Shown: one piece after another, positions 19,269 through 21,853 of the stretch
How the letters are laid out: each line of letters opens with the position of its first letter
Position numbering within the stretch: the first letter of the stretch is position 1
From: Candidatus Dormibacteria bacterium
GTDB taxonomy: Bacteria > Chloroflexota > Dormibacteria > DASZGP01
DNA: 64,000 bases
Assembly: GCA_050998755.1 (NCBI GenBank)
Contig: JBPCPW010000095.1
Coordinates: 8,546 to 72,545 of the forward strand
Direction: 5' to 3'
Notes under the pieces: model-generated
What the model was told of the DNA's origin: nothing
What the model saw: only the letters and a program-made list of their open reading frames with translations
The model's database searches: none
Translations under genes and position numbers: made by a program

Positions 19269-19530
19269 TAGTTATAAAACCTGGCCATATGCTGGAATAA
19301 CCGTCCTGAGAAAGGTGAGTATCCCGTGGTAGAGCGTGAGCTCTGACAATCCATCGGGTGCGGTCAATCAGCAGGAAAGGCTCTCCGCAGGGAGAGAATC
19401 CTCAGAGACTAGACGCCAGGCGCCACTGTAAAGCGGTGATGATATAGTCCGATCTTACGGGCGACCGTGAGAGCTGCTCAGAAATGTAGCAGCCGTCTCA
19501 GACGAGAGACGCAACAATAATGAACGGTCC
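19269..19530 (+). mobile_element. group I intron 1 (ORF-less) in 23S helix 69, after E. coli U1917
   Basis: Exon GTAACTAT|...|AACGGTCCTAAGG. Preceding exon U, intron terminal G. Internal guide GTAGTT pairs with exon AACTAT. Shares blocks with intron 4. Confidence 0.75.
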
Positions 19531-19576
19531 TAAGGTAGCGAAATTCCTTGTCGGGTGAGTAGAAACGAGCCCGTAC

Positions 19577-20245
19577 CGGCTAATATCGGTGGAGCCCTAT
19601 TGACGGCGTGCGACTGTCACGGGTGGTACCGAGGGAAGTCGCCTTGCAAGAGGTTGACCCCGTATCGACTGAGGCTTAAGTGCCGAGGGTTGCCACGCTT
19701 ACGCAAGGGCGTAAAATTTATGTGGTGGCCAAGACGCCGGTGAGTTTCGATGTGAACCTCCCTTCGTACATATCTGGTTACGTTGACGGAGAGGGATGCT
19801 TCACCGTCTCGTTCTCAAGGCGCATGAAGATGCGTGGAGGATGGGAAGTGAGGCCGAGCTTTTCGGTCAGCCAGAACTCAGACCGTGCAGAGGTGCTGCT
19901 GGAGATCCAGGAGTACCTCGGATGCGGAACGATTCGCCCAGATCGGAGCGACAAGACCATGAAGCTCGAGGTGCGCAGCATCGCGAACTTGGTCGAGAAG
20001 GTCATTCCTCACTTTGAGAGGTACCCGATGCGCTCCAGCAAACAAAGGGATTTCGAGTTCTTTGCCAGGGTATGCCAGCTCGTAAGCGCTGGCGAACATC
20101 TGACGCCCGCCGGCTTCCACAAGGTGGTCGGAATGGCAACTCAGATGAACAGCTCTGGCCGGCGCAAATATAGCGCCAGTGAGATGCTCGATAGCTCGGA
20201 GCTCAGAGTTATAGTCAGCACCCCCAGGAACGGGGGATAGAAGCG
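19577..20245 (+). mobile_element. group I intron 2 (encodes a LAGLIDADG endonuclease), after E. coli U1951
   Basis: Exon CCTTGTCGGGT|...|AAGTTCCGACC. Intron ends in G. Guide GCCCG pairs with exon TCGGGT. 5' part homologous to intron 3. Confidence 0.75.
19680..20240 (+). CDS. LAGLIDADG homing endonuclease (single-motif, I-CreI-like) inside intron 2
   Basis: Motif YISGYVDGEGCFTVSF plus downstream conserved blocks. Real start may be the GTG at 19722. Confidence 0.8.
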   Translation: MPRVATLTQGRKIYVVAKTPVSFDVNLPSYISGYVDGEGCFTVSFSRRMKMRGGWEVRPSFSVSQNSDRAEVLLEIQEYLGCGTIRPDRSDKTMKLEVRSIANLVEKVIPHFERYPMRSSKQRDFEFFARVCQLVSAGEHLTPAGFHKVVGMATQMNSSGRRKYSASEMLDSSELRVIVSTPRNGG

Positions 20246-20767
20246 AAGTTCCGACCCGCACGAATGGCGTAACGAGTTGGGCGCTGTCTCGACTACACAC
20301 TCGGCGAAACTGAAGTACCTGTGAAGATACAGGTTACGCGCGGCAGGACGGAAAGACCCCGTGGAGCTTTACTGCAACTTGTCACTGGTCAGGGGCTTAG
20401 CATGTAGAGGATAGCTGGGAGACTGTGAAATTCGGGCGCTAGCTCGGGTGGAGTCAACCTTGGAATACCAGCCTTGTTAAATCTTTGATCTAACCGACAC
20501 CGTGATCCGGTGGCGGGACCGTGACAGGCAGGCAGTTTGACTGGGGCGGTCGCCTCCCAAAAGGTAACGGAGGCGCCCAAAGGTTCCCTCAGCCTGGATG
20601 GAAATCAGGCTTTTGAGTGCAATGGCATAAGGGAGCTTAACTGTGAGACAAACAGGTCGAGCAGGTGCGAAAGCAGGGCATAGTGATCCGACGACTCGGT
20701 ATGGAACGGTCGTCGCTCAACGGATAAAAGCTACCCCGGGGATAACAGGCTTATCTTGCCCAAGAGT

Positions 20768-21026
20768 CAATTAGTGGCTCCTCGCCCGAGCGATCGGGCG
20801 ATGATACAGTGGCTCATATCGGTGAAGCCCGCCGGCAGCTCAAACTGCCAGGGTAATACCGAGGGAAGTCAGCTCCATTTGAGCTTGACCCCGTAACGAC
20901 TTCTCGCAACCGCGAGAGATGGAGGTCGCTACCTCGTGAGAGCTAAATCTATGACCTCCATAAAACGCCACCATCTCACCGAGATGAAGGTATAGTCTGC
21001 GCTCCGAGAAATCGGAGACATTAGCG
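20768..21026 (+). mobile_element. group I intron 3 (ORF-less) in 23S domain V, after the position aligned to E. coli U2473
   Basis: Exon CCCAAGAGT|...|TCACATCGACGG. Intron ends in G. Homologous to intron 2 (ATATCGGTG, TACCGAGGGAAGTC, TTGACCCCGTA, TATAGTC). Confidence 0.7.
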
Positions 21027-21157
21027 TCACATCGACGGCAAGGTTTGGCACCTCGATGTCGGCTCGTCGCATCCTGGGGGTGTAGTCGCTCCCAAGGGTT
21101 GGGCTGTTCGCCCATTAAAGCGGTACGCGAGCTGGGTTTAGAACGTCGTGAGACAGT

Positions 21158-21853
21158 GGAATTGAACGCGCTGTCTATAAATCTGGCTATATGCTGGAAT
21201 ACCCGAGTATCCCTCGCTACTATCCCGAACAGATGTTTGGTATAGTGACAATGTGGAGGGTGCGGGCAATCAGCAGGAAAGGCTGGATAGCTACATGGCT
21301 GGGTTCGTTGATGGCGAGGGTTGCTTCGCCATCTCGGTCCAGCGCAACATTTCCTGTCGGACCGGTATTCAACTTGTACCCGAGTTCCATGTCAGCCAGA
21401 ACGGCGATCGAGCAGAAGTGCTCGGTCTCCTTCAAGAACGGCTGGGGTGCGGGTACATACGGAGTAACGGGCGGAAAGATCGAGCACTGGTATTCGTGGT
21501 GCGGAGACGAGAGGATCTCCTCGAGAGGGTAATTCCCTTCTTTGAGGCGAACCCCCTCCTGTCCTCCAAGCACAGGGAATTCCAGACGTTCGCGGTCATC
21601 GTGAGAGCGATGGCAGTGGGCCGGCATCTCGCAGATGCGGGCTTTCGTGAACTCCTAACTGCGGCCCTCCTGATGAATGGGGGCGGCCGCTTCCGACAGA
21701 AGCAATGGTTAGAGATCAGCTATCCAGAATCCTCAGAGACTACATGCCGGACAGGAGAGATCCTGAAGATATAGTCCGAGCTGCATGGCGACATGCAGAG
21801 CTAGGCAGAAATGCCCTGGCCCCGACCCATGACGGGTCGTGGTAACAAAACTG
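21158..21853 (+). mobile_element. group I intron 4 (encodes a LAGLIDADG endonuclease) in 23S domain V, after the position aligned to E. coli U2604
   Basis: Exon GAGACAGT|...|TCGGTCCC. Intron ends in G. Guide GCTGTCT pairs with exon AGACAGT. Homologous to intron 1 (ATATGCTGGAATA, GGTCAATCAGCAGGAAAGGCT, GATATAGTCCGA). Confidence 0.75.
21253..21774 (+). CDS. LAGLIDADG homing endonuclease (single-motif) inside intron 4
   Basis: Motif [15 protein letters not shown]. 173 aa. Similar architecture to the intron 2 ORF (shared blocks RAEVL..LGCG..R and VIPFF/VIPHF). Confidence 0.85.

Follow-up and report, generated by a model that had tools for sequence, protein, structure and literature searches.

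More than one group I intron can interrupt a bacterial 23S rRNA gene. Coxiella burnetii carries Cbu.L1917 and Cbu.L1951 (Raghavan et al. 2007, J Bacteriol 189:6572, as cited in PMC11270868 and entered in Table 1 of PMC1995217), and Synechococcus sp. C9 has 23S introns at L1917, L1931 and L2593 (Haugen et al. 2007, PMC1995217). In the Candidate Phyla Radiation (CPR, or Patescibacteria), group I introns with LAGLIDADG_1 genes occupy 23S positions 1917, 1931, 1952, 2593, 2604 and 2657, and the 2604-type site is stated to be unreported outside these bacteria (Tsurumaki et al. 2024, PMC11270868). Here we describe the single rRNA operon in a 64,000-nt stretch of a Candidatus Dormibacteria metagenome-assembled genome (MAG; GCA_050998755.1, contig JBPCPW010000095.1, positions 8,546 to 72,545 of the forward strand; G+C about 68%), which we call the window. 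Its 23S rRNA gene carries four group I introns of two ribozyme classes, and each appears to belong to a lineage specific to one rRNA site, a reading to which we assign a probability of roughly 0.85. The introns are numbered i1 to i4 in gene order, and HE2 and HE4 are the products of the open reading frames (ORFs) of i2 and i4, the latter being homing endonuclease genes (HEGs) by family. Labels such as L1917, L1951, L2473 and L2604 denote 23S sites in E. coli numbering, and three-digit labels (L001-L253) denote comparison loci or contigs. The gene is laid out as follows.

17257..22160, + strand: 23S rRNA gene with four introns (3' end approximate; Rfam LSU_rRNA_bacteria, 2312 bits)
17257-19258, 19523-19556, 20246-20767, 21027-21157 and 21854 to about 22160, + strand: 23S exons, from alignment to E. 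coli rrlH
19259..19522, + strand: i1 at L1917 (loop of helix 69, H69), class A, ORF-less, 264 nt
19523..19556, + strand: exon between i1 and i2, 34 nt (E. coli 1918-1951)
19557..20245, + strand: i2 at L1951, class B, 689 nt, HEG in the P8 loop
19752..20240, + strand: HE2, single-motif LAGLIDADG_1 ORF, 162 aa from GTG 19752 (PF00961, E=8.4e-27)
20768..21026, + strand: i3 at L2473, class B, ORF-less, 259 nt
21158..21853, + strand: i4 at L2604, class A, 696 nt, HEG DNA in the P6 loop
21253..21774, + strand: HE4, single-motif LAGLIDADG_1 ORF, 173 aa, GTG start (PF00961, E=1.8e-20)

Intron boundaries were set by the rule that a U ends the 5' exon and a G ends the intron. When i1-i4 are excised in silico, alignment to rrlH finds E. 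coli-type joins restored after U1917, U1951, U2473 and U2604, the predicted ligated junctions being CGTAACTAT joined to AACGGTCC, TTGTCGGGT to AAGTTCCG, CCCAAGAGT to TCACATCG and TGAGACAGT to TCGGTCCC, and the spliced 23S rRNA is 99% identical to that of L009, a metagenome contig. An earlier note on this DNA had proposed four group I introns in H69, after U1951 and at two sites in domain V, and the alignment to E. coli bears this out; the interval given there is exact at its end (21853), although its start (19269) falls 10 nt inside i1. The division of the four into two families, of which each has one member with a LAGLIDADG ORF and one that lacks it, also holds. Between i1 and i4 the longest common substring is 18 nt, with 24 shared 10-mers, and between i2 and i3 it is 14 nt, with 9 shared 10-mers, as against 7-12 nt and 0-4 shared 10-mers for the four cross pairs and at most 12 nt in shuffled controls; the pairing of i1 with i4 and of i2 with i3 is well above chance. 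Pairwise alignments were made with the ORF loops removed, since global alignment with the ORFs left in misplaces the 3' cores, and over the columns so aligned i1 and i4 are identical at 188 of 234 (80%), with compensatory changes in P9, and i2 and i3 at 155 of 196. Moreover, the ORF does lie where the partner has a short loop, as had been suggested: the non-ribozyme DNA of i4 sits between P6 stem arms 21283-21292 and 21718-21727, where i1 has CUCUCC-GCAG-GGAGAG with its GCAG tetraloop, and the HE2 ORF is within the P8 loop of i2, the corresponding loop of i3 being 3 nt.

All of the shared blocks quoted for the two pairs were found in the sequence: ATATGCTGGAATA (at 19287 and 21189) and GATATAGTCCGA (19441 and 21768) in i1 and i4, and ATATCGGTG (19583 and 20816), TACCGAGGGAAGTC (19627 and 20857) and TTGACCCCGTA (19654 and 20885) in i2 and i3. 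The longest had to be shortened, the 21-mer GGTCAATCAGCAGGAAAGGCT being exact in i1 only and the exact i1/i4 block being the 18-mer CAATCAGCAGGAAAGGCT (19365 and 21267). Two of the proposed elements are not pair-specific, because none of the four introns lacks TATAGTC and because GATATAGTCCGA fits the Rfam consensus for J8/7-P7 of group I introns in general, AAGAUAUAGUC. The similarity as a whole is restricted to the pairs when only this gene is considered, but it belongs to the class rather than to the pair. A metagenome scan with the class-B P3-P4...P4' motif found it, among the matches listed, at L2593 (at least about 40), L1951 (at least about 45), L2473 (at least 6), L2504 (at least 6) and also L2500; the blocks common to i2 and i3 therefore mark a class found at five or more sites in 23S rRNA.

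The earlier note saw in the pairs an HEG gain/loss cycle plus spread of introns to a second site in the same rRNA. As a model this would mean that, within the gene or its lineage, reverse splicing or off-target cleavage took one intron of each class to a new position, and that the partners differ by recent gain or loss of the same HEG. The pair-restricted similarity with its long exact blocks, the 80% identity of i1 to the ORF-deleted i4, and the placement of the ORF DNA where the partner has only a short loop are what such copying would leave behind. In addition, L009 lacks both i1 and i4 and has both i2 and i3, and reverse splicing has classically been argued, on circumstantial grounds, from related introns at two rDNA sites (PMC3984707). 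Comparison with introns at the same sites in other genomes nevertheless speaks against it. By blastn, i1 scores up to 208 bits and i4 280-340 bits against L1917 and L2604 introns elsewhere, respectively, compared with 85-121 bits against each other; i3 scores 178-186 bits against L2473 introns (L012, L098, L114) and i2 scores 310 bits (L011) and 177 bits (L010) against introns at its own site, compared with 46 bits between i2 and i3. Over a 253-column core alignment, the identity of i1 is 73-75% with L1917 introns from Dormibacteraeota and Solirubrobacterales but 65% with i4, and i4 matches other L2604 introns at 74-76%; on 180 strictly homologous columns, i3 shares 72-99% of positions with L2473 introns, as against 56% with i2. 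Copies of one another would be mutual closest relatives, and these partners are far from that. In similarity to i1, i4 ranks 69th of 110 other class-A introns, 68 L1917 or L2604 introns elsewhere being closer, and i1 ranks 80th of 110 relative to i4. In class B, i2 ranks 84th of 95 relative to i3 and the reverse comparison gives 54th of 95, when the last 46 nt of each intron are used; the last 80 nt, which are non-homologous in L1951 introns with a P8 ORF, gave i2 rank 95 of 95.

Neighbor-joining (NJ) trees against same-class introns elsewhere, the phylogenetic check that the earlier note had called for, separate the pairs. Introns at L2604 group together (bootstrap 73) inside the L1917 introns, those at L2473 do so (bootstrap 100) inside the L1951 introns, and i1 with i4, or i2 with i3, are sisters in 0 of 100 bootstrap trees each. 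Two further features separate the partners. The P9 of i4 is near-identical to that of L2604 introns of Actinomycetota, unlike the P9 of i1, and the ORF-bearing L2473 introns (L012, L098, L143, L184, L194, L195) carry a LAGLIDADG_2 gene in P6, whereas i2 carries a LAGLIDADG_1 gene in P8. Judged by sequence comparison, i1 and i3 are ORF-less members of the L1917 and L2473 lineages and not ORF-less copies of i4 and i2. The negative is a clean one and has a general use: look-alike introns in one gene are no evidence of intragenic spread unless their same-site relatives elsewhere have been checked.

The helices on which the group I assignment is based were placed as follows (IGS, internal guide sequence; all on the + strand).

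i1: IGS 19267-19273; P3 19280-19285/19415-19420; P4 19290-19295/19368-19373; P6a hairpin 19381-19396, with GCAG loop
i1, 3' part: P7 19407-19411/19445-19449; P9 19454-19460/19465-19471
i2: IGS 19569-19573; P3 19576-19580/19736-19740; P4 19586-19590/19628-19632; P7 19667-19670/20213-20216
i2, continued: P7.2 19688-19696/19722-19730; P8 19741-19749/20197-20205; P9 20221-20225/20232-20236; no P2
i3: IGS 20777-20780; P2 20783-20789/20794-20800; P3 20809-20813/20967-20971; P4 20819-20823/20858-20862; P6a 20868-20875/20881-20889
i3, continued: P7 20898-20901/20994-20997; P7.1 20902-20917; P7.2 20919-20927/20953-20961; P8 20972-20977/20981-20986; P9 21002-21007/21012-21017
i4: IGS 21170-21176; P3 21182-21187/21746-21751; P4 21192-21197/21270-21275; P6 extension stem 21283-21292/21718-21727
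i4, 3' part: P7 21738-21742/21772-21776; P8 21752-21755/21762-21765

Class A (L1917, L2604) is without P2, has an extended P5 and holds its ORF, if any, in P6. Class B (L1951 and L2473 here; L2593, L2504 and L2500 elsewhere) has P7.1 and P7.2, with the ORF in P8 at L1951 and in P6 at the other sites. Every intron has the core and terminal features expected for self-splicing, namely an exon U paired to a guide G in P1 (AACUAU/GUAGUU in i1, CGGGU/GCCCG in i2, GAGU/GCUC in i3 and AGACAGU/GCUGUCU in i4), a conserved P3-P9 core and a terminal G (omega-G, present in 4/4), and all four are predicted to be self-splicing. Only i1 scores above the gathering score of Rfam Intron_gpI (RF00028), with 60.2 bits against a gathering score of 50. 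The assignment of i2 and i4 is by structure and by homology to i3, i1 and their families: with its P8 loop swapped for GAAA, i2 folds into a P3-P9 architecture like that of i3, and the pairs of i4 are canonical at the covarying columns of class A. Across 111 class-A introns, P3, P4, P5, P7 and P9 are 98-100% canonical, the terminal P5 pair excepted, with 2-6 pair types per position, and P9.1 is about 85-90% canonical and covarying. Compensatory changes support P4, P5, P7 and P9 across 96 class-B introns, and in the i2 lineage 4/4 sequences (i2, L009, L010, L011) show such changes in P8. Class-A P8, with its variable helix length, and P3 and P8 of the mixed class-B alignment lie outside the covariation scoring on account of alignment problems. 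Fold z-scores against shuffles are -3.35 for i1 and -6.14 for i3, and the fold of i3 recovers the assigned helices. Intervening sequences of the RNase III type were rejected in view of the conserved group I core, the U-G pair at the 5' splice site, the terminal G and the exact restoration of the exons. A placement of P3' of i2 at 20159, with the ORF in P7.2, was ruled out by comparing ORF-less with ORF-bearing L1951 introns and by folding.

HE2 and HE4 are 47% identical, and each covers positions 1-101/102 of PF00961, the profile of the homodimeric single-motif type, with the LAGLIDADG helix and its acidic catalytic residue intact (motifs SGYVDGEG and AGFVDGEG); their best relatives of solved structure are halves of I-OnuI-family enzymes. 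Both are predicted to be active endonucleases that would drive homing. Translation of HE2 probably starts at GTG 19752, the position that corresponds to the ATG start in L010 and L011; two more starts in the same frame lie upstream, at 19740 and 19680 (186 aa). Its ORF reads through the 3' arm of P8, J8/7, P7' and P9, and the HEG is in the P8 loop across the whole L1951 family. The HE4 ORF starts just upstream of the P5 3' strand, L001 having an ATG at the position equivalent to this upstream start, and it overlaps the P5, P4 and P6 core strands, with NQQERLDSY encoded by AATCAGCAGGAAAGGCTGGATAGCTAC; its stop is the TAG inside GATATAGTC (J8/7-P7'). We found 4392 homologs of HE2 and 1475 of HE4, mostly in soil metagenomes and Actinomycetota MAGs in both cases, those of HE4 being 170-176 aa long and 64-94% identical to it. 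HE4 is 44-48% identical to L1951 endonucleases (126-131 bits) and 35-42% identical to L1917 endonucleases (at most 94 bits), the latter figure being a further point against descent of i1 and i4 from one another within this gene. The HEG and ribozyme histories thus disagree, HE4 being nearer to L1951 enzymes while the ribozyme of i4 is nested among L1917 ribozymes, and because of this disagreement we tentatively suggest that endonuclease genes may have moved between ribozyme scaffolds.

The gain and loss of introns and HEGs that the earlier note had seen between the co-resident introns is real, but it is visible between genomes and not within this gene. We place it there because L009, whose 23S exons differ from those of the window at 30 of about 3000 positions, has copies of i2 (90.4% identity) and i3 (95.4% identity), whereas its 1917 and 2604 sites hold no intron and match the window in sequence, the surrounding exon being free of differences for 45 nt and 60 nt, respectively. 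The L009 allele, with its empty L2604 site, is accordingly a candidate natural substrate of HE4. In the i2 copy (L009:5200-5887), a 1-nt deletion at intron position 319 frameshifts the LAGLIDADG ORF, which could be real HEG decay or an assembly error. Remnants of HEGs are found at two other loci. The 304-nt L2473 intron of L114 is ORF-less and keeps two short remnants of a P6 LAGLIDADG_2 gene, and the 308-nt L1951 intron of L246 is ORF-less and keeps the ribosome-binding site, ATG and 3' end of a P8 LAGLIDADG_1 gene; both are clean HEG deletion scars, and close relatives carry the genes. Related genomes therefore show, between them, every stage of the cycle: sites without an intron, HEGs that are intact, frameshifted or reduced to deletion scars, and introns with no ORF. 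In addition, ORF-bearing and ORF-less members are interleaved in the NJ trees of both classes.

Our explanation starts from what is observed, namely the presence and absence of the introns, their structure and class membership, and their site-specific relatedness. Each lineage presumably reached its own site, or stayed there, by homing, in which an empty site would be cut and then repaired from an intron-bearing allele. Of the four introns, i2 and i4 still have intact LAGLIDADG_1 genes, and on this account i1 and i3 are endonuclease-less derivatives of lineages that have genes of their own in other genomes, LAGLIDADG_1 in P6 (L1917) and LAGLIDADG_2 in P6 (L2473). As for the persistence of the ORF-less introns, i1 lies 34 nt from the i2 site and i3 lies 131 nt from the i4 site, and such introns may tentatively be thought to persist in part by co-conversion with a neighboring endonuclease-bearing intron. 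An ORF-sized neighbor within 34 exon nt is present in 20 of 35 species with an ORF-less L1917 intron as against 4 of 53 with an ORF-bearing one (loci L012-L130; Fisher p=7.6e-7, in a comparison that ignores the shared ancestry of the species). No exon differences between the window and L009 occur around the i1 and i4 sites, and hence there is nothing there by which to trace co-conversion tracts.

Like the shared ancestry behind the L1917 comparison, a number of further points weigh against the reading of four group I introns in site-specific lineages and the mechanism built on it. L009 has i3 without i4 and i2 without i1, which does not favor upkeep by a neighbor. In Rfam, i4 scores 34.5 bits over its 3' part only, below the gathering score, the match being partial because the ORF splits the core; i3 aligns at full length with 24.8 bits (E=1.6e-4), also below the gathering score, with a helix assignment equal to the hand-derived one and a 60-nt insertion (P7.1 and P7.2) between P7 and P3'; and i2 has no Rfam match at all. 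In addition, i4 (21158-21176) lacks the GACC(G) just 5' of the guide, the best match being 3/4 bases, which in other L2604 introns (L001-L003 compared) can pair with the 3' exon (P10). The NJ trees were built on 180-253 columns and their deep nodes are weak; the L1917 intron of the window (WIN_1917) is placed with other Dormibacteraeota L1917 introns by just 26 bootstrap replicates in 100. The motif used to draw the class-B sample favors i3-like sequences, so that i2-like introns are under-sampled. Finally, the window is a MAG contig, and its intron arrangement is backed only piecewise by other assemblies.

The alternative that survives best is compatible with site-specific homing and extends it. 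It holds that in ancient site switches L2604 introns arose from an L1917-type ribozyme and L2473 introns from an L1951-type ribozyme, that the L2604 lineage gained an L1951-related HEG, and that the pairs now seen in one gene are distant cousins brought together by independent homing. The trees suggest a much older switch of this kind, which would not be a property of this gene, in that the L2604 and L2473 clades nest as described above. Moreover, i3 is on average nearer to L1951 introns (61-62%) than to L2593 and L2504 introns (56-60%), and the higher scores of HE4 with L1951 than with L1917 endonucleases fit the HEG gain. The deep NJ nodes, however, are weak and the alignments are short, the trees are midpoint-rooted and so do not give the direction of any switch, and the HEG similarity could reflect unequal evolutionary rates instead of gene transfer. 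We judge this extension to fall a little short of an even bet.

A more far-reaching reading treats the intron cluster as a cooperative unit of shuffled parts. It would require, jointly, that the L2604 element is a chimera of an L1917-type ribozyme and an L1951-type HEG moved from P8 to P6, that L2473 is a homing site of class-B introns with LAGLIDADG_2 genes, and that the ORF-less members are kept up by co-conversion. If true, such upkeep would explain why ORF-less L1917 introns, such as i1 at 34 nt from i2, so frequently have ORF-bearing neighbors. As a joint claim we consider it possible, though on balance doubtful.

A chimeric assembly, in which the four-intron gene would have been joined across the conserved rRNA exons of different metagenome populations, we regard as very improbable. 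In its favor, the window belongs to a MAG, rRNA operons readily assemble into chimeras, intron-bearing and intron-free close alleles coexist in nature (L009), and a number of short metagenome contigs, such as L252 and L253, end precisely where an intron begins or ends. Against this, the exons are 99% identical to those of L009 along the whole gene, other phyla differing by about 6% in the 131-nt exon, and L009 has i2 and i3 together. ORF-less L1917 and ORF-bearing L1951 introns, 34 nt apart, occur in at least 9 other genomes. Moreover, L252 joins an i4-like intron (95% identical) to exons 99-100% identical to those of the window, and L253 independently has i3-like and i4-like introns together, again with exons 99-100% identical; these independent assemblies argue against a chimera. 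Weakest of all is copying within the gene as a recent event, which the ranks, the trees, the P9 helices and the endonuclease families set out above largely refute.

The four lineages occur widely in soil bacteria, Solirubrobacterales, Gaiellaceae and Dormibacteraeota among them. When species genomes were scanned for this one site, using exon and guide sequence, L1917 introns were found in at least 119 species, with hosts among the matches listed in Solirubrobacterales, Dormibacteraeota, Thermoleophilia, Acidobacteriota, Nitrospirota, Gemmatimonadota, Planctomycetota, a Coxiella endosymbiont and CPR. Introns extracted by regular expression were filtered by ordered exon landmarks, which removed artefacts inside L1917 introns (a '201-nt' L2473 and a '636-nt' L1951 intron), and class-A anchors are present in 116 of 117 extracted introns (105 L1917 and 12 L2604). 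In contigs that encode HE4 homologs (L001, from Gaiellaceae, and L002-L008), this intron again sits at exactly L2604, and an i4-type intron at L2604 is also present in L050, L052, L089, L252 and L253. Multi-intron 23S genes are common, with examples in L050 (L1917, L1951, L2604), L092 (L1917, about L2473, L2604) and both L012 and L098 (L1917, L2473). Such lineages provide a natural collection of homing endonucleases with known target sites.

Two other insertions came to light in these comparisons. Five Candidatus Dormibacteraeota MAGs (L012, L044, L078, L098, L114) have an ORF-less L1917 intron of 254-266 nt and, within the 34-nt exon (1918-1951), a second ORF-less insertion of about 250-260 nt that is absent from the window. 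In L010 (GCA_963777285.1), the element at 2181-2921 has a ribozyme that resembles class A, with 72% identity to the 5' portion of i4, and that encloses a 237-aa ORF with a faint LAGLIDADG_3 match; the site is about 800 nt upstream of the 23S start, and the element is probably a 16S rRNA intron with a class-A ribozyme.

The remainder of the operon comprises tRNA-Ile and tRNA-Ala genes and the following rRNA genes.

14821-16323: 16S rRNA
22289-22404: 5S rRNA

Upstream of the operon, at 11324-11586, is a large (Bacillus-type) signal recognition particle RNA (154 bits), and about 9 kb downstream, at 31596-32711, is rlmN, encoding the 23S rRNA A2503 methyltransferase (MGI8610026.1), the proximity of which to the operon is probably coincidental. 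The Rfam alignment of the 23S rRNA squeezes model positions 1-2925 into 17257-21244 and stops inside i4, about 900 nt before the true 3' end; it is too short because the gene is interrupted by introns. Automatic annotation of such genes will be wrong, and amplicon and other rRNA-based surveys can likewise be disrupted by them.

Compared with the described systems, the window is nearest in layout to Coxiella burnetii. Going by the title of that paper and the tabulated data, the Coxiella introns lie at exactly 1917 and 1951 around a 34-nt exon (the title gives the 34-bp spacing), and the L1951 intron is 720 nt long with a 157-aa single-motif LAGLIDADG protein, much like i2 with 689 nt and 162 aa; one Coxiella intron, again according to the title, is without a canonical omega-G, whereas 4/4 introns in the window end in G. 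The window differs in having two further introns, at L2473 and L2604, and in its host, a high-GC soil Dormibacteria MAG as opposed to a gammaproteobacterial pathogen. The Coxiella L1917 intron is reportedly ORF-less, and the subgroups given for the introns of that species are reportedly IB2 and IA3.

Among the cyanobacteria, too, a single 23S gene can hold several group I introns that encode single-motif LAGLIDADG proteins (PMC1995217). The cyanobacterial L1917 introns lack P2, have a complex P5 and an ORF running from P6 through P7, P3 and P8, as in i4 and class A, their L2593 introns have P7.1, P7.2 and a short P2, like class B here, and introns and HEGs cluster by insertion site, as they do here. 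In that set, however, 5/5 introns have ORFs, as against 2/4 in the window, and L2473 and L2604 are not among the sites. With the CPR introns (PMC11270868) the window and its relatives share ORF-bearing and ORF-less versions at the same site with high similarity beyond the ORF, ORFs degraded by deletions, and the possibility of many insertions per gene. The difference is that the L2604 intron is here found in Dormibacteria, with relatives in Gaiellaceae, Solirubrobacterales and other non-CPR MAGs. The 2473 site has no mention in the literature searched, which includes the main text of PMC11270868 and one supplement without site coordinates, and in which full-text searching on L2473 and L2604 turned up nothing but unrelated papers; this is no proof of novelty. 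With respect to the gain/loss cycle and transposition by reverse splicing (PMC1995217, PMC3984707), all stages of the cycle and related introns at two sites of one gene are found here too, but the related introns of the window are not mutual closest relatives; the gene therefore documents no transposition event, only the old relatedness of site-specific lineages. The same L1917, L1951, L2473 and L2604 intron and endonuclease lineages are common in non-CPR soil phyla, often several to a gene, and the introns of the window are a case of ordinary site-specific homing, of a kind already known, and not of copying within the gene.

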